Positions 18,812-32,292 of a stretch of DNA of 64,000 bases are shown in pieces (position 1 is the stretch's first letter; the number at the start of each line of letters is the position of its first letter). Under the pieces are notes generated by a model. That model did not search any database, was not told where the DNA came from, and saw only the letters and a list, made by a program, of their open reading frames with translations. The stretch spans positions 3,136,001 through 3,200,000 of the forward strand of contig OZ252149.1 in assembly GCA_965248755.1 (NCBI GenBank), written 5' to 3'. Both the position numbers and the translations under genes were made by a program. Origin of the DNA: Candidatus Latescibacterota bacterium (GTDB taxonomy: Bacteria > Latescibacterota > CBDEFO01).

Positions 18812-21800
18812 ATGAACACTTTAAAGCTGCTGTTGCGGTCAGCTATTCTTCTAACTCTCTCTGTAAACGCCTTATATGCTCAGTATGGTGAGCCGTTCGC
18901 AGTAAGCCTGACCGGCATAGACGGCAGCTCCACTATCATAGCCAATCCCGGAGAACAGTTTCAAATTGAGGCAAGGGTCAGTCCGGTAACTAAAGGCCTA
19001 TTCGGATTCTCCTCAAAATTTGGGTTTGACCCTAATGTTATCGAGATGGTAACAGAGTTTGGGCAACCGATCATAGTGCGTGTTCCGCCATTGCCTGGTA
19101 ATCCCACACCTGCTGGTGGTCTGGTAGCTGGCACAACTGACACGCTTAGTATGGGCGTTGTCGCATCAGATGGTGTTGGTGATTCGCCTGTTAGTGGTCC
19201 GATTCTTAGGATTACGTTTAGAGTGAAGAGCACAGCTACTCCTGGTGATTCGAGTCCGCTTAATTTGGTTAATACTGTTGTTAGTGTAGACACTCTTTTG
19301 GCATTTGGACCCTTTTTTGGTGTAGACATTCCTGCGGATACTCTTAGAAGCGCGGTAGTGCAGGTTCCTCCAGATACCACTGGTTCTGTCATTGATGTCT
19401 CCCCGACAAGTATAGATTATGGTGTCGTATTGGTAGGTGGTAGTTCTGACAGTACGATAAAGATTAAGAACGTAGGCAACGGGAACTTAGTCTTAGGGAC
19501 TCTGTCCATTACAGGCACTAATGCAGGTGAGTTTTCTATTTTTACTCCTCCCATTATAACTATCGCTCCGAGCGATAGCACTAATGTTGTCATAAGGTTC
19601 TCACCTCAGTCGGGTGGAACAAAATCAGCCACTTTGGTCATTCCGAGCAACGATCCAAATAAGCCATCTGTGAACGTACCGTTGACTGGTGCAGGTGTCT
19701 CCCCTAAAACTATAACAGTAACGGTAACGGATGCTGTGGGCAATCCAGGAGATCTGGTGAAAGTGAAGGTATTCGTGGAGCTGCAGCCTGAGGCTACCCT
19801 CGGCTTGTCTGAAATGGATATCAAGCTTAACATTGATCCGACAGTCATCAAAGTGGCGGGCACATTTATAAAAGACATCACCACTTTGCTGCCGTCATTC
19901 AGTAATTTCGCTACAGTCACCAATAGTGACAGTACGATTCACCTTATAGGCGCTCAGGGATCGGGTATTGCGCTAACATTCGCAGATTTGGGGCTTCCTG
20001 GAAACCCTGAAGCTGCCTGGGAGATCGGTTTCAACGTAGTAGGAAGTCCAGGGGATGTCAGCCCGATCACCGTAAATCTGGTAACGTCGGGTTTATCTAC
20101 GGGCCCTCGTGGGTCCACGAACACTGCACTTAATCCAGTAGATATTGCTGTAAATGGAAGCTTCAGTATACCTGTGGTCATCTCCAAAACTACAGTAGTG
20201 GCGGCTCGCACGACTCTCAAGGCCGACGGAGCTGATACTACGCTAATTACAGTAACTCCGAGAAAGGCCGACGGTAGTAAGATCAGTACCACTCTAAATG
20301 TGAGCGTTAATACAACAGCAGGTTCCGTTGGGGGTGTAACCGCTGAGACTGATAGCACATATACGGCTGTTCTGACCGCATCAAATGTTTTCGAGACAGC
20401 TGTGGTTAAGGCTATTATCGCTGGACAAGTGGCTCCTGACTCTGCGGTGGTGGTTTACCAACCTGCCCCTGATTCTCGATTTGGTGAGCCGTTTACAGTA
20501 AGGTTGACCGGTACTGACGGGGATACTACTATTGTAGCCAATCCAGGAGAGGAGTTTCAAATTGAGGCGAGGGTCAGTCCGGTAACTAAGGGCTTATTCG
20601 GATTCTCCTCTAAATTTGGGTTTGACCCTAATGTTATAGAATTGGTCACACAGTTTGGGCAACCGATTATAGATCGTGTTCCTGCATTACCTGGTAATCC
20701 TACACCTGCTGGCGGTCTGGTAGCTGGCACTACTGATACGCTTAGTATGGGAGTTGTCGCATCAGATGGTGTTGGTGATTTTCCTGTGGGTGGTCCTGTT
20801 CTTAGTATTACGTTCAGAGTGAAGAGTACAGCTAATCCTGGGGATTTGAGTCCGCTCAATTTGGTTGATGCTGTTGTTAGTGTAGATACCCTTTCGGTAT
20901 TTGGACCATTTTTTGGCATAGACATTCCTGCGGATACTCTTATAAGCGGAATGGTGGAGGTTATTCCAGTTACCACTGGTGCTGATATTGATTTCCCCAC
21001 GAGAAGTATAGATTTTGGTCCTGTTCAGGTAGGCAGCAGTGTGGACAGTACGCTAAAGATTAAGAACGTAGGCAACGGGAACTTAGTCTTAGGAGCTCTG
21101 TCCATTACAGGTACAAATGCAAGTGAGTTTTCTATTGTTGTTCCTCCAAGTACGACTATCGCTCCGAGCGATAGCACTAATGTTGTCATAAGGTTTTCGC
21201 CTTCGTCAGATAGTGCAAAGTCTGCCACTTTGGTCATTCCAAGCAACGATCCGGATAAGCCATCTGTGAATGTACCGTTGACTGGTGCAGGTAATCTTCC
21301 CTCTGCCCTTCAGGTTAGCATGCCGCATATTACGGCGTCTCCGGGTGAACTCATTTTGATCCCAATACAGATAACAACTCCGGGGCGCTTTGCTATCTCC
21401 TCAACTGAAATGTTCATTAGCTATGATTCTGACGTTACAAGAGCGCTTGAAGTAGTTACTGCTGGCACACTCACCGAGGGATGGGAGCTTATTTCCTTCA
21501 GGCATTCTTCTGGAATACTAACCTCTATTGATACGGCAAAGGTAGCTATGGCAACGCCCGTTGATACACTCACCGGGCCTGGCACTCTTGCCTTCATCAG
21601 AGTTAGCATCCCCCATACAGCTGCCCAAGGCGCTACCACACCCCTTGCTTTCCAGCGTCTTCTGTTTAATGATGGAGATCCGTCCGCGGTGACACAGAAT
21701 GGATCGCTCACTGTTGTTGCTATTCTAGGAGATGTCAGCAGTAATGGGAGAGTTGGTGCTTTTGATGCGTCGTTGATTCTCAGGGAGGTGGTGGGGCTTA

Positions 21801-22654
21801 TCACCTTACCTGATCCTGAATGGCCACACTTCACTTTATCTGTTGCCGATGTAAGCGGTGACGGGACGATCTCTCCTTTGGATGGAGCGCTCATCCTACG
21901 GTTCGTTGTTGGGATCACAGACCGCTTCCCTGTGCAGGCAGGACGATTTCCCAAATTTGTCTCTTCTGAAAGAACCATTCGGTTAGGAGAACAAGAGAAA
22001 TTACGTGATGGCTATTTCCGCGTTCCGATCTCTATAGATGAAATGGATGAAGTGCTTGCAGGCAAGATTCAGCTTACCTTTGATCCTTCGCATGTCACTG
22101 TAAAGGAAGTCTTGTCCGTTGGGTTAACCGCAGATTATCTTTTTGAAAGCAATATCATCCCCGATAGATTCAATCGGGGAAAGGATAAGATCATCATTGC
22201 CTTTGCAGGAGTGAAACCTCTCTCAGGAAGCGGTGAAGTTGCACATATTATCCTTAAAAGTGATACGATGCAGGAAGATATAATGGGAAGTGTTTCTCTG
22301 GAGATGGTAATTTTGAACGAGGGGCAAATCGGTGTGCTTATTGTTGGTAGTGAGGAGAAACAGACGTCGTATCCAGATACTTACCGATTATTTCAGAATT
22401 TCCCGAATCCTTCCAACCCAGAGACGACAATTCGGTATTATCTGCCCTCCTCCACCCCTCTCACGCTGACGATCTATAATCTGTCCGGACAGTTGATTCG
22501 GACACTGGTAGACGGACAAAGATCAGCCGGTAGCCACTCAGTGATATGGGATAGCACGGACGACACCGGAAATCCTGTGGCGAGCGGAATTTATCTCTAT
22601 CGGGTGGAGGCAGATGGATTTGCGCAGACGAGGAAGCTGATATTGATGCGGTAG
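18812..22654 (+). CDS. Large secreted multi-cohesin / Ig-like (ASPM-type, invasin-like) / dockerin protein with FlgD-type tail
   Basis: Signal peptide; IKNVGNGNL...SNDP Ig modules; LKADGAD Big-like domain; GDVSSNGRVGAFDA/ADVSGDGTISPLDG dockerin; QNFPNPSNP tail. Confidence 0.82.
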   Translation: MNTLKLLLRSAILLTLSVNALYAQYGEPFAVSLTGIDGSSTIIANPGEQFQIEARVSPVTKGLFGFSSKFGFDPNVIEMVTEFGQPIIVRVPPLPGNPTPAGGLVAGTTDTLSMGVVASDGVGDSPVSGPILRITFRVKSTATPGDSSPLNLVNTVVSVDTLLAFGPFFGVDIPADTLRSAVVQVPPDTTGSVIDVSPTSIDYGVVLVGGSSDSTIKIKNVGNGNLVLGTLSITGTNAGEFSIFTPPIITIAPSDSTNVVIRFSPQSGGTKSATLVIPSNDPNKPSVNVPLTGAGVSPKTITVTVTDAVGNPGDLVKVKVFVELQPEATLGLSEMDIKLNIDPTVIKVAGTFIKDITTLLPSFSNFATVTNSDSTIHLIGAQGSGIALTFADLGLPGNPEAAWEIGFNVVGSPGDVSPITVNLVTSGLSTGPRGSTNTALNPVDIAVNGSFSIPVVISKTTVVAARTTLKADGADTTLITVTPRKADGSKISTTLNVSVNTTAGSVGGVTAETDSTYTAVLTASNVFETAVVKAIIAGQVAPDSAVVVYQPAPDSRFGEPFTVRLTGTDGDTTIVANPGEEFQIEARVSPVTKGLFGFSSKFGFDPNVIELVTQFGQPIIDRVPALPGNPTPAGGLVAGTTDTLSMGVVASDGVGDFPVGGPVLSITFRVKSTANPGDLSPLNLVDAVVSVDTLSVFGPFFGIDIPADTLISGMVEVIPVTTGADIDFPTRSIDFGPVQVGSSVDSTLKIKNVGNGNLVLGALSITGTNASEFSIVVPPSTTIAPSDSTNVVIRFSPSSDSAKSATLVIPSNDPDKPSVNVPLTGAGNLPSALQVSMPHITASPGELILIPIQITTPGRFAISSTEMFISYDSDVTRALEVVTAGTLTEGWELISFRHSSGILTSIDTAKVAMATPVDTLTGPGTLAFIRVSIPHTAAQGATTPLAFQRLLFNDGDPSAVTQNGSLTVVAILGDVSSNGRVGAFDASLILREVVGLITLPDPEWPHFTLSVADVSGDGTISPLDGALILRFVVGITDRFPVQAGRFPKFVSSERTIRLGEQEKLRDGYFRVPISIDEMDEVLAGKIQLTFDPSHVTVKEVLSVGLTADYLFESNIIPDRFNRGKDKIIIAFAGVKPLSGSGEVAHIILKSDTMQEDIMGSVSLEMVILNEGQIGVLIVGSEEKQTSYPDTYRLFQNFPNPSNPETTIRYYLPSSTPLTLTIYNLSGQLIRTLVDGQRSAGSHSVIWDSTDDTGNPVASGIYLYRVEADGFAQTRKLILMR
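18887..21292 (+). repeat. 810-bp intragenic direct repeat (18887-19696 and 20483-21292)
   Basis: Near-identical cohesin + Ig module pair at DNA and protein level. Confidence 0.92.
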
Positions 22655-22783: not shown

Positions 22784-22856
22784 CTCTCCCGGCAGGACTC
22801 GAACCTGCGACACGGTGGTTAACAGCCACCTGCTCTGCCAACTGAGCTACGGGAGA
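22784..22856 (-). tRNA. tRNA-Asn(GTT), CCA not encoded
   Basis: TCTCCCG TAGCTCAG...GGTGG-CTGTTAA-CCACC...GCAGG-TTCGAGT-CCTGC CGGGAGA-G. Confidence 0.96.
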
Positions 22857-23366: not shown

Positions 23367-24350
23367 ATGAAAAATAAGATATTAGTCGTACCACCTTTCC
23401 TGGATCACAGTGTATTTGAAGAAGATGAAGACACAGGTGTGGACATATTGAAAAGGGAATTGCCCTTCGAGCCGGTTATTGAAGCGTACGAAGTAGGGAC
23501 GCTCTCCGCAGATCGTGCTGAAGGGGTTGCAGCCGTAATAGCGGATGGGTCTAAAGTCGATGAAGAGTTCTTCAAAGCGGCCAAGGGCATTATCTACGCC
23601 AGGTGGGGAACAGGTACAGACGGCTACACCAAGGAGATGGTCCTCAGGAATAATATATTGGCTACCAAAGTGCTGGGCGCAAGCGCAGATGCCGTTGCCG
23701 AGTACTCTATCTGGGCCATTCTGGACCTTTTAAAGGAAGCGACGTACAACAACAATCTGGCTCATCAGGGACAAGCAAGGAGGGTAGTAGCAAGACAGAT
23801 CAAAGGCAAGACGGTGGGTATTTACGGATTCGGCCTGATAGGCCAGGGCGTAGCAAGAAAACTCAAGGGATTGGAAGTCCATATTCTGGCATACGATATG
23901 GTAGATAAAAGCCAGATAGCAGATGAGATAGACGTGGAGTTAGTCGCAGCCCCTGAAGAGCTCTTAGCTAGATCGGACATCGTCTCTTTGCATGTCTCTG
24001 CCTCGGACACGATCATTGACAAGGCCGCCATAGAAAAAATGAAGGATGGGGCAATATTGGTGAACCCTTCCAGAGACTTTCTGATAGACGAGACGGCTGT
24101 GTACGAAGCGTTAGAATGCGGGAAACTTTCGGGAGTCTATCAGGAAGAACTTCCCCAAGAAGAGCGGCTGCGCGGACATCCACATGCCCTCTTCAGCCAT
24201 CACAACGCAGGAATATCTGTCGAAGCCTGCAGGGCTTTGACTACTACGACCGCTCACCAACTAGCCGACTTCCTCAACGGGTACCAACCTGAGCATATAG
24301 TCTATCGGGAAGTGCTGAAAAATATGAATCTCAAACCTAAAAGAAGATAA
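23367..24350 (+). CDS. D-isomer-specific 2-hydroxyacid dehydrogenase (SerA-like)
   Basis: GIYGFGLIG, YD, SLHV, LVNPSR, HNAG; AAGGAG RBS. Confidence 0.88.
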   Translation: MKNKILVVPPFLDHSVFEEDEDTGVDILKRELPFEPVIEAYEVGTLSADRAEGVAAVIADGSKVDEEFFKAAKGIIYARWGTGTDGYTKEMVLRNNILATKVLGASADAVAEYSIWAILDLLKEATYNNNLAHQGQARRVVARQIKGKTVGIYGFGLIGQGVARKLKGLEVHILAYDMVDKSQIADEIDVELVAAPEELLARSDIVSLHVSASDTIIDKAAIEKMKDGAILVNPSRDFLIDETAVYEALECGKLSGVYQEELPQEERLRGHPHALFSHHNAGISVEACRALTTTTAHQLADFLNGYQPEHIVYREVLKNMNLKPKRR

Positions 24351-24507
24351 AATCCTCACTACGACCTTCCCACTGCTTTTCTCGGCTTTTTTGTCAACTC
24401 CGCTCACCGGTTTCTCTGTGTTCTGGCTCCCCATACGCAAGTAGACAGTAAACAGGGACATAGCTTCCCATCCCTGTGTGCTGTCTACTATGTTTTGGTC
24501 GCCATAT

Positions 24508-24535
24508 GAACTTTTGAATTCCCCGCGGTGTCTTA
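24508..24535 (+). promoter_or_regulatory. Candidate ECF-type promoter upstream of the ECF sigma gene
   Basis: GAACTT-N16-GTCTTA. Confidence 0.5.
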
Positions 24536-24630
24536 TGTAGTGAAAGCCTTTTCCCACAAAAAAGTTCTTCCCCGATTGAATCCCCAATAGCATCAATTGG
24601 GGATCGGAGATAGACGAAGATAAAAGGGCT

Positions 24631-25236
24631 TTGATGACACAATCCGATCGAGACCTCATTGGGAAGATTCGGGATCGCGATGCCAACGCCTTCGAGACGC
24701 TATTTGTGCGCTACAGGGAGATGGTCCGCCGACACTTGGCGAGCATAGTGCACGACGAGGATGGGGCCGACGACCTGGTGCAGGAGGTCTTTCTGCGGGT
24801 ATGGACTCGCGCAGAGCAGTGGAACGGCCGGGGGGCATTTAAGGCGTGGCTCTTCCGCATCGCTACAAACCTTGCACTTAACCACCTGCGCAGTCTGCGT
24901 AGGAGAAGACAGCAATCTCTCGACATCTCAGCGGATCCAGCCGACGACGACGACGAAAGTCCTGTCCCCGGATGGATGATCGACGCCTCGTCACTCGGAC
25001 CTGATGCGGTGCTTGAACAGGCCGAACAGCACGACCTACTCCAGGGTCTTATCGATAGGTTGCCCGAAGAAAAGCGCGAGGTTTTCCGGATGGTGCACGA
25101 GGTGGAGGTGGACATTCGGGATGTCGCCCACGCACTTGATATCCCAGAGGGCACCGTAAAATCGCGCCTGCACTACGCCAGGAAACATCTCGCTCGAAAA
25201 TGGAAGGAAATAGCGATAGAATGGGAGGATATGTAA
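24631..25236 (+). CDS. ECF RNA polymerase sigma factor
   Basis: Region 2 ADDLVQEVFLRVW...FKAWLFRIATN; region 4 LPEEKREVF...IPEGTVKSRLHYAR. Confidence 0.96.
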   Translation: MMTQSDRDLIGKIRDRDANAFETLFVRYREMVRRHLASIVHDEDGADDLVQEVFLRVWTRAEQWNGRGAFKAWLFRIATNLALNHLRSLRRRRQQSLDISADPADDDDESPVPGWMIDASSLGPDAVLEQAEQHDLLQGLIDRLPEEKREVFRMVHEVEVDIRDVAHALDIPEGTVKSRLHYARKHLARKWKEIAIEWEDM

Positions 25237-28200
25237 TGGCACTGGATATATCTGCGTTTTGGCATAGGGAATCGTTCGACCGGTTTTTGAAGGACCAGTT
25301 ACCCCAGCTCCTGGCTGCTCGGATGCCGCTTGTCGCCTATCATGTCGAATCGACCGGCATCTACACCTGTCACGTTAAGGTTGCTTTTGGGTCTGCCTCC
25401 GGAGACGTAGACGTCGAGTACACTGACCTTCCTCAACCGGACGAGGAAGGTATCTTCGAGGTCGAAAGCGTAAAGTATGTGGTCGTCCCGATAGCCTTTC
25501 AAGAGGAGTTAGACCTCGCCGAGATCCGCTGTGTCGGCGAACAGCTTTACGACTACTTTGAAGAGCGCCTGGGCGAAGCGCCGGAGGACTTACCATGGGA
25601 CGAGTCGCTCGCGCGAGCCTGGCTTCCGCTCAATGTGTGGATGCGTGAATTCCTGCACGCGGACCTACCGTGGGACGGAAATATAGTGCAAACGGCCCAC
25701 ACGCTCCATGATCAAAACTGGCTCGACAGGCATGCGCATCTGCGGCGCATCGTAGTTATGGACCCAAAGAAGATGTTCACACCTGGGCACCTCGGCCGCA
25801 CCTGTCCCTTCGAGACGCCGGAGGGCCCCAATATCGGTCGAATCCTAAGCATCGCCATGGGCGCGGAGATCAGCGATGGGAAGCTCGTCATTGTCAATGA
25901 TAAGCCTGAAGCTTCCATCGGTCTTTCAGCGTCTATGGTCCCCTTTCTGGAGCACAACGACCCGAACCGACAGCTTATGGGGGTCAACATGATGCGTCAG
26001 TGGTTCGTGCCGGCGGAGGTGGAACCTGCGCTCGTCCAGACCGGAAATGAACCCGACGCACCCGGCTTCTGGTGCGGGCGCAACCTGCTGACTGCCTTTG
26101 TCTCATGGGGTGCGGACACCTTCGAAGACGGCATCGTGGTGGGCAAATCGTGCGCCGAGCGCCTCAACTACCCCCATCCCGTCGAAGTGGGAGACAAGAT
26201 CAGCAACCGCCACGGAACCAAGGGCGTTGTGGCGAATATCCTGCCCGACAAAGAAATGCCGCACCTCGCCGATGGCACTCCGATAGAACTCGTTTTCAAC
26301 TTTATCAGCGTTCATTCGCGGATGAACCTCGGTCAACTGCGTGAGGCGCTAACAAGCCGCATCGCGAAAGCGGAGGGAGCGCCAGTCGTTGTGCCCCCAT
26401 TCGGCGCGCCGGGTGAACGTGAACTTCGCGAACGCCTTGCAAAGGCCGGACTTCCTGAAGACGGGATGGAGGTCCTCACGCTCGGACGCGATGGGCTGAA
26501 ACTGTGCCGGCCGAGCACAGTCGGATGGGTCTACTGGGGACGGCTCAATCACCTGGCGCGCAATAAGATATTTGTGTCTACCGATCACCATAAGCGCTCT
26601 TCAAAACAGGGCGAACTTGAGTATTATGCACTACGCGACGTCGGCACATTTGAAAACCTGATGGAGCATTTCAACACGCGCGCCCTCCGGCGGGACGATG
26701 CGGATAAACTCGCAGATCGCGTCGCAGAAGGCGCGGTCGAACAGGCCGGCCCGCCGACTCCCGGGTTCTCCGAAATAGCTCGGCGTCTTGTGGCTGGGGG
26801 GATCCAAGCAGAACTCGAAGGTGAGAAGCTAACGTTCAAATTTGCCAAACCCGAGGGCGATACTCTCAAGCTTGCCCGTCCAGTTGCGCATCCGTGGATA
26901 TGTGATCAAGAATTAGATGAGATCGGCGCTTTTGATGAACTTTCCGAATACCGCAATCTCGCCGAGGTCAACGCCAAAGCAGAACGCATACTCGCAAGCG
27001 ACGCTCCCGAAAGCCTGACCCGCAAAGCTTTTGAACAGCTCCAAACCCACGTGGGAAAGTTCTTCGACGCTCTCCTTGGCCCTCCCCACCTGCGCTTCGG
27101 CGAAAACTCACTCTTCAGCGGGCGAACGGTGATCTCGCCGGGGGCGGACCTTCGGATCGACCAGTTGGGACTTCCGGAAGAGATCGCGTGGACGCTCTTT
27201 GGGCCACTTGTAAGGCGAGAACTCAGCGTAGGGGCAGACTCGCGTGTCTGCCCTCCAGATTCGGGCGAACACATGGGTTCGCCCCTACATAAAGAGGAAG
27301 TAGACACCAGAAGCCCGCGTGCAACGGAGGAGCTCGACGAGATAATGGCGCGCTCGTGGGTCCTTCTACAGCGCATTATGCCCACGTCGTTCCTCGCGTT
27401 TCACCCCGTGCGGTGTCCAGGTCGCACTATCCATATCCATCCGCTCGTGTGTAGCCTGATGAACGCCGACTTTGACGGTGATCAGGCCGCTGTCTTCCTG
27501 CCGATCACCGAGGGCGCACAGCGCGAGGCTGGCGAGCGTCTGTCCGTCGCCGGTCACCTTGCGCGCGACCCGGAACTGCTCAAGTCACTGCTCCCGACGC
27601 ATGAAGCGATGTGGGGCGTTGCGAGTCTGAGCCTTACACCAAAAGGGCGCGAAGAGGTCTCAGAGCTTGCAGGGACTGACGTGACTGCACCCGACGGTAT
27701 CATCACGAGAGACTCGCTTGCCGAGGCGATGAAAGGCGTCCTTGAGTGCGATGGGATCGATAAGACCCTCGAAGTGCTCGAACGGCTGATGCGGCGAGGA
27801 TTTGAGGTCGCAAAGGAATCCGGAGCGTCCATTAGCCCGTTCATCGGGTCGAGCTTAAAGCGCTCGCCAGAGCCAGAAGAGGGTGACGCTGAGATGTGGG
27901 ATGACTACGCGGAGGAGCTTGTGGAACGGATCGCAGGACGCACGGACTTTGAGGACAACGATATGGGTCCGCAACTTCTTGCGATAAAGAGCGGCGCACG
28001 AGGTCAACTGCGCCAGCTTGCCTACCTGGTCGGGGCACGGGGCACAGCTACGGATGTCCGGGGGAGGGACGTACCGATCCGCCGCGGATATTCCGATGGC
28101 CTGACGCCCCAGGAGATGTACGCCGCTGTGGTCGGCGCACGGGAGGGACTTGCCGAAACAGTGCTGGAGACGTGGACGCGGTTTGGACTCGAATTTCATG

Positions 28201-28370
28201 AGGCAAGACAGCCGAAAGGCTTCAACTTCCTTGCGCGCGCAATGCGGGCAAAGCGCCCCGGCATCGTCTTCGCTCGCGCCGCGGCAACGGGCGAGATCGA
28301 TCCACTTACGGACGTCGACAGTCGCCTGTTCGTCGGACTACCCGCAAAATTAGTAGACAGCAAACAGTAG
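25236..28370 (+). CDS. Compact single-chain RNA polymerase beta/beta-prime fusion protein (~1044 aa)
   Basis: RpoB motifs GRTCPFETPEGPNIG, PFLEHND..R.LMGVNMMRQ, FED, GDKISNRHGTKG, SRMNLGQ, RLNHL, GELE, then RpoC motifs SGRTVI, HPLVC..NADFDGDQ, SGARG, GAREGL; TAATG overlap with the sigma stop and GGAGG RBS. Confidence 0.9.
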   Translation: MALDISAFWHRESFDRFLKDQLPQLLAARMPLVAYHVESTGIYTCHVKVAFGSASGDVDVEYTDLPQPDEEGIFEVESVKYVVVPIAFQEELDLAEIRCVGEQLYDYFEERLGEAPEDLPWDESLARAWLPLNVWMREFLHADLPWDGNIVQTAHTLHDQNWLDRHAHLRRIVVMDPKKMFTPGHLGRTCPFETPEGPNIGRILSIAMGAEISDGKLVIVNDKPEASIGLSASMVPFLEHNDPNRQLMGVNMMRQWFVPAEVEPALVQTGNEPDAPGFWCGRNLLTAFVSWGADTFEDGIVVGKSCAERLNYPHPVEVGDKISNRHGTKGVVANILPDKEMPHLADGTPIELVFNFISVHSRMNLGQLREALTSRIAKAEGAPVVVPPFGAPGERELRERLAKAGLPEDGMEVLTLGRDGLKLCRPSTVGWVYWGRLNHLARNKIFVSTDHHKRSSKQGELEYYALRDVGTFENLMEHFNTRALRRDDADKLADRVAEGAVEQAGPPTPGFSEIARRLVAGGIQAELEGEKLTFKFAKPEGDTLKLARPVAHPWICDQELDEIGAFDELSEYRNLAEVNAKAERILASDAPESLTRKAFEQLQTHVGKFFDALLGPPHLRFGENSLFSGRTVISPGADLRIDQLGLPEEIAWTLFGPLVRRELSVGADSRVCPPDSGEHMGSPLHKEEVDTRSPRATEELDEIMARSWVLLQRIMPTSFLAFHPVRCPGRTIHIHPLVCSLMNADFDGDQAAVFLPITEGAQREAGERLSVAGHLARDPELLKSLLPTHEAMWGVASLSLTPKGREEVSELAGTDVTAPDGIITRDSLAEAMKGVLECDGIDKTLEVLERLMRRGFEVAKESGASISPFIGSSLKRSPEPEEGDAEMWDDYAEELVERIAGRTDFEDNDMGPQLLAIKSGARGQLRQLAYLVGARGTATDVRGRDVPIRRGYSDGLTPQEMYAAVVGAREGLAETVLETWTRFGLEFHEARQPKGFNFLARAMRAKRPGIVFARAAATGEIDPLTDVDSRLFVGLPAKLVDSKQ
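27228..27288. repeat. GTAG-type REP doublet inside the polymerase-like ORF
   Basis: GTAGGGGCAGAC..GTCTGCCC-spacer-GGGCGAAC..GTTCGCCCCTAC. Confidence 0.85.
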
Positions 28371-28494
28371 ACAGCACACAGGGCTTCCCCCTGCCCATCT
28401 CCCTTGAAAGGCGAGATTGCTTCGCTATCGCTCGCAATGACACAGAGAGTGTTGGCAATGATGTTGCTTGTCCTTTTGTCATTGCACAGTGCCA

Positions 28495-29885
28495 AAAGTC
28501 CGAAGCAATCTCAAAAACACTTTCTATGGTCATTGCGAGGCAGCGTGGCCGCTCTGCTGGGATGGCTGAAAGCCACGGAGGTTGTGGTAAACTGTTAGTT
28601 GAGTGTGGCAGGCAAAAGAGGTTATTTCTACCGTTAGGCGTAAGATCAGAACATAAAAGGAGGAAACATTGAACCAAGTTCTTGATGACACCAAGAAAAC
28701 GTTTCGCAGTCTGCTCGACGAAAGCACTGATCATCAATGCATTATCGACTTGCTCGTATCTCTTCGGGAAAAGGTCGATTTGTCGGTGGACGATACTGGG
28801 TGGGCCTTGTGGAATATTTGCGACCAATACGCACTAATGCGGGATGCAAAGAACCAGTACACTTATCAGTCCGAGTTTCACGAGTGGGCCAAAGCCAATC
28901 TTCCCCCTTCGAGGTTTCACTGGGTTGTCTCGGACGGGACGCAGGCACTCAGTCTGATTGATGGCGGCTATCTCGACTTCTGGTGGCGATGTTACAACCT
29001 CGCCAACGAGCAATGCCCACGAGATGCTAAGAACCGCGGCGCCCGATTCGAATCGCATAGAGCCAATGCAGCTTCATATACTCACTTTCGGGAATTCAGT
29101 CGTGCTGAAACCGCCCTGAATGCAATAGAGGAACTCCTTGCGGAGGATCAGTCCTGGAGCAACCGCGAATTCGCTGCAGCAACATACTCAACTCTCCTGG
29201 TTGACTTTTACAATGTTTCGGAGCAAAGAGACAAACTCGCACAAACAGAGGGAACCCTTGAAAAGGAGCTTGATGATTGGCTTGGCCGAGCAGGCGATGT
29301 AGAAGACGCACCGGAGGGCCCTTTGCTAGGGAGTTGGGACCAACTGAATGCAGATAGGCCACCGGCGGCGATTTTCATTGCAATCAACAACACCGCGTGT
29401 GCTTTCACCAGAGCGAAGCAATTCCCGGATGCAGAACGGTTGTTCCGCATTTTGCTGGAAAGAAACAGGATTCTAAATGCCTATGGCCAAGCGCAATATC
29501 TACAATCATGTTGGGGGAACAGGCGCAACAAGGATGAAATTGTTGATTGGCTGGACGGCTCCAAGCAACTAAACCCACAAAATCTGAAAAGATTCGCACC
29601 ATCGCTCATAGATGTCGTCAAAGATGAACGTCCGGATTTCGCCTAACAATGCGCTCCCCCTGACTGGCAATTCTCTGGTGCTCATTGCCAGCACCTACAC
29701 AAAGTGTACCAAAAAGGGAAACAAAACTTACCGAAACGGTACACAAAGTGTACCAAAATGGTACACTCATCTCCCGTAACTCGTTGTCTTGCAATGTGGT
29801 GCAAAGTCCGAAGCAATCTCAAAAACACTTTCTACGGTAATTGCGAGGCGGTGTGGCCGCTTTGCTGAGATGGCTGGAAGCCACG
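28495..29885. repeat. 83-bp imperfect direct repeats (28495-28577 and 29803-29885) of the GTCATTGCGAG/GCAATC palindromic family
   Basis: AAAGTCCGAAGCAATCTCAAAAACACTTTCTA...AAGCCACG in both copies. Confidence 0.85.
28669..29646 (+). CDS. Hypothetical helical protein (possibly TPR-like) in a cassette-like unit
   Basis: 325-aa ORF with AGGAGG RBS and TTG start; no recognisable motif. Confidence 0.7.
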   Translation: MNQVLDDTKKTFRSLLDESTDHQCIIDLLVSLREKVDLSVDDTGWALWNICDQYALMRDAKNQYTYQSEFHEWAKANLPPSRFHWVVSDGTQALSLIDGGYLDFWWRCYNLANEQCPRDAKNRGARFESHRANAASYTHFREFSRAETALNAIEELLAEDQSWSNREFAAATYSTLLVDFYNVSEQRDKLAQTEGTLEKELDDWLGRAGDVEDAPEGPLLGSWDQLNADRPPAAIFIAINNTACAFTRAKQFPDAERLFRILLERNRILNAYGQAQYLQSCWGNRRNKDEIVDWLDGSKQLNPQNLKRFAPSLIDVVKDERPDFA

Positions 29886-32144: not shown

Positions 32145-32292
32145 CCCCTTTAGAATCAGTAGACAGCAGGTAATAGCCCCGATCCCCGAACCCCGATAGA
32201 TTCACTCGGGGACTCAATCGGGGGTAGACAGGACACGGCGTCTTCCCCATGCGCTTGTTTTAGGCGTAGACATCTTCTTCTACGCGTTTGTT

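Follow-up and report, generated by a model that had tools for sequence, protein, structure and literature searches.

An ECF-type sigma factor gene coupled to the gene of a single-chain mini RNA polymerase: a candidate dedicated holoenzyme

Textbook bacteria have one RNA polymerase core that is common to all of their sigma factors, and the gene of an ECF sigma factor usually, though not universally, has its cognate anti-sigma gene next to it. In the window analysed here, a stretch of 64,000 nucleotides from a Candidatus Latescibacterota bacterium (contig OZ252149.1, positions 3,136,001 to 3,200,000), an ECF-type sigma gene is instead joined to a gene for a much reduced RNA polymerase. An earlier note, made from the letters alone, had offered two interpretations: a self-contained transcription module, or a polymerase mimic that sequesters the sigma factor. 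Does this sigma factor work with the polymerase encoded beside it, with the core of the host, or is it held in check by its neighbor?

The two genes lie on the + strand, as do all the features described below. The stop codon of the sigma gene (TAA, 25234-25236) shares one base with the start codon of the polymerase gene (ATG, 25236-25238), so that the TAATG overlap at 25234-25238 reported in the earlier note is present as described. The Shine-Dalgarno sequence of the polymerase gene is GGGAGGA at 25223-25229, 7 nt upstream of the start and inside the sigma coding sequence, where a GGAGG ribosome binding site had been placed. A GGAGG-type sequence is found within the codons of the conserved sigma C-terminal W-E-D/E in most related loci. 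The large open reading frame, as listed, opens at an in-frame ATG at 25200, but the first residue of its homologues corresponds to the codon at 25236. The distance between the two genes, whether a gap or an overlap, does not exceed 4 nt in 27 of 34 related loci (one more is uncertain, and 11 come from one genus), and thus the coupling is not due to chance. The observation of a sigma gene coupled to a mini-polymerase gene is therefore confirmed.

The sigma gene occupies 24631-25236. A TTG start at 24631 gives 201 aa and an ATG at 24634 gives 200 aa, of which the ATG is the likelier start. The protein contains the Pfam domains Sigma70_r2 (aa 24-92, 2.2e-19) and Sigma70_r4_2 (aa 135-187, 2.6e-12), with Sigma70_ECF matching at aa 8-192. 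It has regions 2 and 4 only, lacking regions 1.1 and 3, and so belongs to the ECF class (group 4). The sole NCBIfam model passed is the superfamily TIGR02937, with 110 bits against a cut-off of 42.9; the best equivalog, PRK12513, reaches 137 bits against a cut-off of 206. The linker carries a motif, VPGWMID, that is invariant across 20 cognate sigma factors and is kept across phyla although the host cores differ. A six-frame translation of the genome contains it a single time. The accessible portions of the main text and supplement of the ECF reclassification paper (PMC7826278) hold no 'Rpb' or 'RNA polymerase subunit' context.

The polymerase gene (25236-28370) is uninterrupted by stop codons and encodes one chain of 1044 aa, not separate large subunits. 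Searches with Pfam and NCBIfam place Rpb2_3, Rpb2_6 (Pfam, 4.9e-37) and Rpb1_2 (Pfam, 3.1e-16) all within this chain. In this protein, pruned versions of the bacterial beta and beta' subunits are joined, beta first, with a beta-like half at ~aa 1-530 and a beta'-like half at ~aa 531-1044. The AF2 model has a pLDDT of 94.3 and a pTM of 0.92, and Foldseek ranks beta and beta' of bacteria and plastids highest. The first 531 residues can be superposed on a bacterial beta subunit along its full extent (8i23_C residues 22-1162), with Z 30.0, an rmsd of 2.4 Å over 516 aligned residues and 30% identity. On E. coli beta', residues 266-516 are matched by the family profile with an E of 8e-45. The host genome retains canonical rpoB and rpoC elsewhere.

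Both catalytic barrels, the NADFDGD loop, the bridge helix and the clamp coiled-coil are retained. The active-site motif of the beta barrel, SNRHGTKG (aa 323-330, 26202-26225), lies in a region that aligns to E. coli beta 1054-1148; R325 and G327 are present in 87/87 family sequences and K329 in 83/87. The FED motif is present as FEDG at aa 296-299. In the catalytic loop NADFDGD (aa 743-749, 27462-27482) the metal-binding aspartates are conserved in 85/87 (D745), 85/87 (D747) and 84/87 (D749) sequences, with one catalytic aspartate missing in 2-3 of the 87. The clamp coiled-coil (aa 570-613, 26943-27074) is formed in the AF2 model by helices at aa 570-587 and 592-613, and is also supported by the profile alignment to E. 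coli beta'; in canonical holoenzymes this element is the docking site of sigma region 2. The bridge helix (aa 958-990, 28107-28205) is helical in the AF2 model and falls where the profile aligns to E. coli beta' 706-795.

Other parts are gone. The family profile has no match to E. coli beta 149-447 and 822-1053, the lobe and the flap, respectively. Nor does it match E. coli beta' 1-265 (with the zinc-finger/zipper and lid regions), ~312-336 or 796-1321 (trigger loop, SI3 and jaw). Judged by this alignment to E. coli, the mini-polymerase has nothing that corresponds to lobe, flap, lid, rudder, trigger loop or jaw. Past the bridge helix the next profile match is weak, at E. coli beta' 1322-1354, and only ~55 residues lie C-terminal to the helix. 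The beta flap is the canonical dock of sigma region 4. Histidine and valine occupy the positions aligned to E. coli beta D516 and S531, sites of rifampicin resistance, and this suggests that the mini-polymerase may be insensitive to rifampicin. The family consensus is alanine at the positions matching R275, E295 and A302 of the E. coli clamp helix, residues important for sigma70 binding. These alanines could reflect either an orthogonal interface or no sigma binding.

An ECF-type promoter lies upstream of the sigma gene at 24507-24532, comprising a -35 element TGAAC (24507-24511), a 14-nt spacer and a -10 element CGGTGTC (24526-24532). An AAC-containing -35 element with a -10 element of CGT/GTC type is the pattern of ECF autoregulatory promoters. 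A pattern search finds the motif TGAAC-N14-CGGTGTC at the same spacing before the cognate sigma gene in 20/23 loci, with two further near-variants seen by eye among the 23, and in 13/13 loci of a second set, 11 of which are new. It is shared across three phyla. This is consistent with recognition of the promoter by the adjacent sigma factor. The operon promoter is one of the three top PWM matches in the genome, at 29.7 bits; the other strong sites are antisense and lie only within two 92%-identical TPR-protein genes. Five related genomes have 0-3 extra strict matches each, about the number expected by chance, and these never fall in homologues of those TPR-protein genes. Among the genomes scanned there is no second conserved copy of the promoter, that of the operon itself being the only conserved one.

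Downstream of the promoter the transcript is predicted to have a structured 5' leader (24538-24640), with a folding energy of -29.9 kcal/mol and a z of -3.4. A hairpin, CCCCAAT..ATTGGGG, is enclosed by an outer stem in which the stretch immediately ahead of the start codon is paired. The leader has no Rfam match. Among the loci examined the long structured leader is confined to this genus; in most others ~17-20 nt separate the -10 element from the start codon.

The pair is conserved as a unit. The earlier note had called for the neighborhoods of homologues to be compared, and these show the linkage clearly. In 34/35 loci the polymerase gene is preceded by a cognate sigma gene (48-96% identical) of the same orientation, the 35th locus beginning inside the polymerase gene. 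The same holds in 23/23 loci of another set (five already in the 35-locus count, the 18 others being wider cuts taken from genomes of the same phylum search) and in 13/13 of a further one (two of them re-fetches). Across 168 genomes of this phylum the polymerase is found in 66, the sigma factor in 63 and both in 62. The four polymerase-only genomes include one gene fragment and one contig-edge case, and in the single sigma-only genome the gene lies at a contig edge. In a second phylum the family is present in 32/176 genomes. The mini-polymerase is the sole conserved neighbor of the sigma factor in 22 neighborhoods, with no third conserved gene and variable flanking genes. At our locus the upstream neighbor is a 2-hydroxyacid dehydrogenase gene, and downstream is a 325-aa protein that matches no Pfam or NCBIfam family above threshold. 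Pfam and NCBIfam detect no anti-sigma family in the flanking genes, as had been supposed. The higher GC content noted earlier is also real: 58.6% for the module, compared with 48.9% for the 4.54-Mb genome, a value reached by 0.95% of equal-sized genome windows.

The best reading of these data, to which we would give a probability of roughly 0.55, is an autoregulated, dedicated holoenzyme of sigma factor and mini-polymerase. The two-gene operon would encode a private transcription machine under the TGAAC-N14-CGGTGTC promoter. Sigma region 2 would dock on the retained clamp coiled-coil, so forming a minimal holoenzyme that would initiate at the promoter of its own operon, creating positive feedback, and also at other targets. 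Catalysis would be performed by the two conserved double-psi barrels together with the bridge helix. With nothing corresponding to trigger loop, lid, rudder, flap and jaw, the enzyme would probably be less accurate, perform no transcript cleavage, and be blind to host factors and signals that act through the lost parts. Such a holoenzyme is supported by a sigma subfamily that is strictly adjacent to the mini-polymerase and co-occurs with it, by the conserved catalytic motifs, by the preservation of the clamp coiled-coil while most other accessory elements have gone, and by the conserved autoregulatory promoter of ECF type. Some observations point the other way. The flap has no counterpart, yet the promoter has ordinary ECF -35/-10 geometry, which would fit a sigma factor bound to the host core. 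Alanine is found at the three clamp positions, no second conserved promoter copy exists in the genomes scanned, and 2-3 of the 87 family members have lost one catalytic aspartate.

The sigma factor could therefore instead, or also, use the host core, since the flap that positions region 4 is without a counterpart in the mini-polymerase. An ordinary ECF sigma would then activate its own operon, and the mini-polymerase would be a regulated output working without sigma, for example in primer extension, at nicks or single strands, or in copying RNA. The canonical promoter geometry fits this, the scores of regions 2 and 4 are those of typical ECF domains, and a dedicated regulator explains strict co-occurrence equally well. 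Moreover, no sigma partner is known for other single-chain two-barrel polymerases; for one of these, YonO, the need for factors is described as open (PMC5467207). Nevertheless, retention of the clamp coiled-coil amid the loss of lid, rudder, flap, lobe, trigger loop and jaw is not readily explained in this way. The same is true of a sigma linker that is invariant across phyla despite differing host cores, and tight translational coupling is more typical of proteins that assemble. We regard a sigma factor devoted to the host core as a serious but rather doubtful explanation. By contrast, the mimic proposed in the earlier note, which would sequester sigma through its clamp helices as a new kind of anti-sigma and so restrain, by negative feedback, an autoregulated factor that would otherwise run away, seems very improbable. 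The mini-polymerase does occupy the usual place of an anti-sigma where the flanks offer none, its coiled-coil for sigma docking is preserved, no promoter but that of the operon itself is conserved, and a few members lack a catalytic aspartate. However, both barrels and the bridge helix are present, and the protein resembles no anti-sigma family, with Pfam and NCBIfam returning RNA polymerase domains only. Conservation of the active-site residues in 83-87 of the 87 sequences indicates selection for catalysis and not for a docking surface alone, and makes a pure decoy unlikely. The mini-polymerase may titrate sigma as a side effect. Thus of the two original interpretations the self-contained module is the better supported, by linkage, catalytic motifs, clamp and promoter, and the mimic is disfavored by the catalytic conservation.

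A different view of the role is that the module is a horizontally moving accessory cassette that serves not routine gene regulation but transcription in back-up or conflict, as when an antibiotic or a phage factor blocks the host polymerase. Its patchy distribution in the two phyla and its variable flanking genes would agree with this. So would its GC content, which equals or exceeds that of the flanks in 21/21 loci (by >0.03 in 13/21) and here ranks among the highest 1% of windows. To this may be added the degraded piece of a second copy at another place in the same genome, and the histidine and valine at the rifampicin-resistance positions. Against it, among 72,556 plasmid and 50,697 phage records no match covers 80% of the query, and IMG/VR contains no family member, its best match being partial at 36% identity. 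No PADLOC family matches, no conserved integrase or transposase is found in the 22 neighborhoods, and the repeats on both sides of the module belong to a genome-wide element and are not its termini. We consider a cassette of this kind unlikely.

If the dedicated holoenzyme is correct, a conserved chromosomal, sigma-coupled polymerase of ~40% of the normal catalytic mass breaks the one-core rule. It is an even question whether several phyla carry such a second, free-standing transcription system of cellular type, that is, a 115-kDa beta::beta' polymerase with its own ECF-type sigma factor and promoter code, forming a self-amplifying autogene orthogonal to the host polymerase. It would be the smallest sigma-dependent RNA polymerase known. 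It would also offer a minimal model from nature in which promoter-specific initiation proceeds with no flap, lid, rudder, trigger loop, alpha or omega, and experiments on it would define what the enzyme truly requires to recognize promoters with the help of sigma, to melt DNA and to elongate. For evolutionary biology, it would stand in bacteria beside the yeast-plasmid Orf6 and the minimal polymerases of phages. A two-gene polymerase with a private 26-bp promoter, possibly insensitive to rifampicin, would be attractive as an orthogonal expression system and tractable as a target for cryo-EM. Since promoter, sigma factor and catalytic residues are now defined, the role of the module is directly testable.

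We found no description of the pair in the searchable literature, and it can be placed among known enzymes as follows. With the canonical core and ECF sigma it has in common 30% identity to beta, the alignment to beta' 266-516, the catalytic motifs, bridge helix and clamp coiled-coil, and a partner sigma with regions 2 and 4 and a promoter of GAAC/GTC type. In the canonical enzyme ~2700 aa are divided between two chains, to which alpha2 and omega are added, whereas the mini-polymerase is one chain of 1044 aa without counterparts of lobe, flap, beta' 1-265, rudder region and trigger loop/SI3/jaw. The beta::beta' fusions of Helicobacter/Wolbachia type (NF011417, NF007172) have the same fusion order but are full-length essential enzymes of ~2800-2900 aa, while the mini-polymerase is an extra, pruned copy, scoring 185 and 168 bits against their cut-offs of 4632 and 5372.

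Orf6 of pGKL2, from yeast cytoplasmic linear plasmids, is a 982-aa Rpb2::Rpb1 fusion, described as having about half of the coding sequence deleted and trigger, rudder and lid undetectable (PMC2919709). Compared by description only, it matches the mini-polymerase in fusion order, approximate size and kinds of loss. It comes from a eukaryotic virus-like plasmid, however, with homology limited to ~250 residues and no known sigma, whereas our family is bacterial, chromosomal, much closer to bacterial beta/beta' and sigma-coupled. YonO of the Bacillus subtilis prophage SPbeta, like the mini-polymerase a single chain of two-barrel type, of ~100 kDa and without a trigger-loop homologue, is reported to be an active, processive DNA-dependent RNA polymerase (PMC5467207), and it indicates that such minimal enzymes can work. 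YonO has only a few active-site residues in common with multisubunit RNA polymerases, is encoded by a prophage and has no known sigma partner; the mini-polymerase has extensive beta/beta' homology, is absent from the phage collections and is paired with sigma in 34/35 loci. The nvRNAPs of the jumbo phages AR9 and phiKZ, as portrayed in three reports (PMC5449584, PMC9209446, PMC7598289), are likewise reduced and beta/beta'-like and have a dedicated specificity factor. They are phage products built from several polypeptides, and their specificity subunit is not of ECF type and reads the template strand, whereas the mini-polymerase is a cellular enzyme of one chain that comes with a bona fide ECF-type sigma factor.

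The gene for the ECF-type sigma (201 aa) begins at TTG 24631, or more probably at ATG 24634, and ends with the TAA stop codon at 25234-25236. The gene for the single-chain mini-polymerase (1044 codons) runs from ATG 25236-25238 to 28370, sharing the A of the sigma stop codon, and a ribosome-binding-type sequence GGGAGGA lies within the 3' end of the sigma gene at 25223-25229. Both the overlap and the internal ribosome-binding site had been described in the earlier note, and both are present in the sequence. ORF calling starts the long frame at an in-frame ATG at 25200, while homologues begin at the residue encoded at 25236. The pair had also been described as GC-rich and without an adjacent anti-sigma gene, and this is correct. 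The G+C content of the module is 58.6% against 48.9% for the genome, a value reached by 0.95% of stretches of equal size, and the flanking genes match no anti-sigma family in Pfam or NCBIfam. The flanks are a 2-hydroxyacid dehydrogenase gene (23367-24350) and, on the same strand directly 3' of the polymerase, a gene encoding a 325-aa protein (28669-29646) that belongs to no family, having a sub-threshold TPR match only; a locus from the window's genus that is syntenic in other respects lacks this gene. Further upstream a gene at 18812-22654 encodes a 1280-aa secreted protein with cohesin, dockerin and several Ig-like domains and a type IX secretion sorting domain, and just past it is a tRNA gene (22784-22856, minus strand), ~1.8 kb upstream of the module.

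The mini-polymerase contains the Rpb2_3 (residues 160-212), Rpb2_6 (315-447) and Rpb1_2 (625-767) domains in one chain, and scores far below the cut-offs of all rpoB, rpoC and full-length rpoBC models. Bacterial beta and beta' are the closest solved chains by sequence. An AlphaFold2 model based on 87 family sequences has a pLDDT of 94.3 and a pTM of 0.92, and its best Foldseek matches are again beta and beta', both bacterial and plastid. Residues 1-531 span the whole of the beta chain 8i23_C from residue 22 to 1162, with Z = 30.0 and an rmsd of 2.4 Å over 516 aligned residues at 30% identity; with the second-largest subunits of archaea and eukaryotes the same residues reach a similar Z, at 20-26% identity. 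From the domain matches and the superposition on bacterial beta, therefore, the protein consists of a pruned beta subunit in its N-terminal half and a pruned beta' subunit in its C-terminal half.

The extent of the pruning was judged by aligning the family profile to E. coli RpoB and RpoC. In beta the profile matches residues 118-148 (weakly), 448-580, 652-707, 790-821, 1054-1148 and 1177-1342, ending at the last residue of the subunit, and in beta' it matches 266-516, 590-640, 706-795 and, weakly, 1322-1354. The profile has no counterpart of beta 149-447 and 822-1053, nor of beta' 1-265, ~312-336 and 796-1321. We take the lost regions of beta to be the lobe with SI1 and the flap with SI2, and beta' to lack zipper/zinc-finger, lid and rudder as well as the trigger loop (with SI3) and the jaw. 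The regions kept would then be the fork/rifampicin region, the two double-psi barrels, the bridge helix with the F-loop, switch 2 and the clamp coiled-coil. In the model the bridge helix corresponds to the helix of residues 958-990, and the clamp coiled-coil to the helices of residues 570-587 and 592-613.

The metal-binding aspartates are conserved, D745 and D747 each in 85 of the 87 family sequences and D749 in 84, as are R325 (87/87) and K329 (83/87). One catalytic aspartate is replaced by G, S, Q or N in two or three of the 87. Where E. coli beta has D516 and S531, which we take to be classic positions of rifampicin resistance, the window protein has histidine and valine in the alignment, and because of these replacements the mini-polymerase might reasonably be expected to be insensitive to rifampicin.

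The sigma protein matches Sigma70_r2, Sigma70_r4_2 and Sigma70_ECF of Pfam, and of the NCBIfam models passes only that of the ECF superfamily. The linkers of ECF sigma factors are normally variable. The linker of this protein has an acidic run followed by the motif VPGWMID, which is invariant, kept across phyla and unique in the genome.

A word-indexed search with the mini-polymerase gave 970 matches, of which the best 120 are 990-1106 aa in length, with query coverage of 94-100% and identity of 54-91%. Where these 120 are named they are called 'hypothetical protein' or carry Pfam domain names, and the named sources include Poribacteria, Hydrogenedentes and Chloroflexi. An exhaustive search of 50%-identity representatives found 571 with E values no higher than 1e-30; among the top 150, 68 have at least 900 aa. 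The named genome records with the family include Poribacteria, Caldilineaceae, Latescibacterota and a Spirochaetales MAG; a scan of genome contigs was dominated by canonical rpoB and rpoC, with family members at five of the 80 loci retained. The ESM Atlas holds two clusters of ~1000-aa proteins like the mini-polymerase (73 and 135 members, Chloroflexota being commonest), and unnamed clusters of 1221-1787 aa with both Rpb2_6 and Rpb1_2 that may represent other types of polymerase fusion. The window's own genome (G000) has canonical rpoB and rpoC ~2.6 Mb from the module, together with one full mini-polymerase. Outside the window, G000:C1:569571-569834 encodes a fragment 37% identical to mini-polymerase residues 658-741 and broken by TAG. 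It does not match the host RpoC at E < 0.01, and is apparently the remnant of a second mini-polymerase copy.

Within the phylum of the window the polymerase is found in 66 of 168 genomes and a sigma of the cognate subfamily in 63 (E of 1e-30 or better); when the two lists were compared by hand both genes were present in 62. Four genomes have the polymerase alone, one as a gene fragment, one at a contig start, and the other two being G143 and G146, and in the single genome with sigma alone the gene lies at the edge of a contig. For the phylum to which the Poribacteria record belongs, the polymerase is present in 32 of 176 genomes. Examination of gene neighborhoods upheld the linkage of homologues to an ECF gene, in three overlapping sets of loci. 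In the first set the polymerase is preceded, on its own strand, by a cognate sigma (48-96% identical) at 34 of 35 loci; the remaining locus starts within the polymerase coding region, and two genomes were each taken twice. The same arrangement occurs in 23/23 loci of the second set, which is not independent as it comprises five loci shared with the first and 18 wider cuts from the same phylum search, and in 13/13 loci of the third (Poribacteria) set, including two repeats of earlier loci. At 27 of 34 loci the polymerase start overlaps the sigma stop or follows it by no more than 4 nt, and one further locus is uncertain; 11 of the close-spaced loci come from one genus and hence are not independent. 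The GGAGG-type sequence falls in the codons for a conserved W-E-D/E at the sigma C-terminus.

No other conserved gene was found beside the pair in 22 neighborhoods of up to 20 kb. A 345-aa cytoplasmic DksA/TraR-type zinc-finger protein and a 315-aa unknown protein are encoded just upstream of sigma in four loci (L117, L119, L129 and L133), but we rejected them as core parts because they are absent from the window's genome, where there are generic zinc-finger matches only (E ~1e-4). Two loci, L129 (genome G072) and L130 (genome G107), have a fused ABC-transporter gene between sigma and polymerase, and the positions of the sigma genes suggest that this insertion is also present in most of that genus.

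Upstream of sigma we find the motif TGAAC-N14-CGGTGTC, at 24507-24532 in the window. Of 23 loci, 20 have the pattern and two others a near-variant of it, and it is also present in 13/13 loci of the Poribacteria set, where there is a single copy per locus at constant position. The distance from the end of the -10 element to the start codon is ~17-20 nt in most loci. The motif has the usual geometry of ECF promoters, and is the best evidence that the sigma may be a working specificity factor and its operon autoregulated. A search for RNA evidence listed four sequencing runs of a single study, which contain this sequence as DNA, and no RNA run. The window and its genus have in addition a leader of ~85 nt (24538-24640 in the window) that is found in that genus only, with a predicted folding energy of -29.9 kcal/mol (z -3.4). 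It contains the hairpin CCCCAAT..ATTGGGG, enclosed by a stem pairing GAAAGCCUUUU with AAAAGGGCUUU directly before the start codon. As folded, the leader could occlude the ribosome site, or could be a small inserted element; no Rfam family was matched in 24300-28750 at E up to 1.

Further targets of the sigma were sought in its own genome, where the strict pattern occurs at three sites against 1.55 expected. With a PWM the operon site scores 29.7 bits, two other sites score 30.0 and the next 22, the maximum in a shuffled 2 Mb control being 15.9 bits. The two 30.0-bit sites (G000:C1:1476053 and 244196, both outside the window) are identical over 33 nt, and lie antisense within 92%-identical PMT_2 glycosyltransferase-TPR genes over codons of the TPR motif. 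As a single event that was duplicated, antisense and over TPR-motif codons, they were rejected as targets; they are probably a coding coincidence, although antisense transcription there is possible. The matches at 22 bits and below were likewise rejected, being antisense in tandem paralogues. Four of five related genomes have the operon's own site, the other carrying a CGGCGTC variant, and the five each contain 0-3 extra strict matches, none of them in homologues of the PMT_2-TPR genes. The operon itself thus appears to be the sole conserved target among the six genomes.

Taking together the architecture, translational coupling, co-occurrence, promoter and the parts retained and lost, we infer with a probability of roughly 0.55 that the pair is an autoregulated holoenzyme, in which the sigma would bind the mini-polymerase and direct transcription of their own operon. 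Binding is favored by the clamp coiled-coil, which has outlasted the pruning of nearly everything else, by the invariance of VPGWMID in a linker of a kind that is normally variable, by the coupling of the two genes, and by their never being apart wherever the assembly permits a test. Two observations weigh against it. The flap is lost, yet the promoter looks canonical, and three positions of the clamp helices that we take to be important for binding sigma70 are alanine in the family consensus. Prediction of a complex between sigma and mini-polymerase residues 1-799 alone scored 0.21 and 0.20, below the mark of 0.32, and supports neither side. The main rival, in which the sigma activates the operon through the host core and the polymerase then acts without sigma, seems to us unlikely but deserving of serious attention.

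The interpretation offered in the earlier note, a self-contained transcription module or an RNAP mimic acting as an anti-sigma, is supported in part, since the module is favored by architecture, linkage and promoter and the mimic is not. A pure decoy has in its favor the two or three of 87 members in which one aspartate is replaced, but the conservation of the catalytic residues in the family is hard to square with it and we regard it as very improbable. Titration of sigma by the mini-polymerase could accompany either model.

Because the pair has a patchy distribution, a variable context and an excess of G+C, the evidence suggests that it is an accessory, transferable cassette. Its G+C content is at least equal to that of the flanks in 21/21 loci, and more than 0.03 higher in 13. 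Against this, searches of plasmids, phages and IMG/VR gave no full-length relative, and no defense family was matched: PADLOC has none for either protein save a chance-level match of 0.004, and the PHROGs matches of both are to generic sigma and RNAP families only. A dispersed short repeat (core GTAGACAG), whose copies often occur as inverted or tandem pairs, lies on both sides of the module (24440-24489 and 28352-28383), and also at 32224, 38469, 47543, 47561 and 63650. We rejected these flanking copies as the termini of an element, since the 17-mer occurs nine times in the window (0.06 expected) and 108 times in the genome with up to two mismatches, and is absent from module loci of other genera. 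The 8-mer occurs 677 times against ~137 expected, and the repeat looks like a REP-type element of the window's genus.

There is no model for the mini-polymerase family in Pfam or NCBIfam (June 2026), and searches of the full-text literature outside subscription papers, including PMC7826278 with its supplement, PMC8999054 and a 2026 preprint on sigma evolution, brought up no description of it. Among known systems the pair is most closely related to the canonical bacterial core combined with an ECF sigma. The mini-polymerase falls outside the rpoB, rpoC and rpoBC equivalogs. In architecture it is paralleled by Orf6 of the yeast killer plasmid pGKL2, a 982-aa Rpb2::Rpb1 fusion in which trigger, rudder and lid are reported to be undetectable (PMC2919709). 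In function the parallel may be YonO, a single-chain polymerase that has no trigger-loop homologue and yet is reported to be active and processive (PMC5467207). The pair differs from all three in joining clear bacterial beta/beta' ancestry with a single chain, and in being chromosomal beside a normal polymerase, with a dedicated ECF-type sigma and a promoter of its own.
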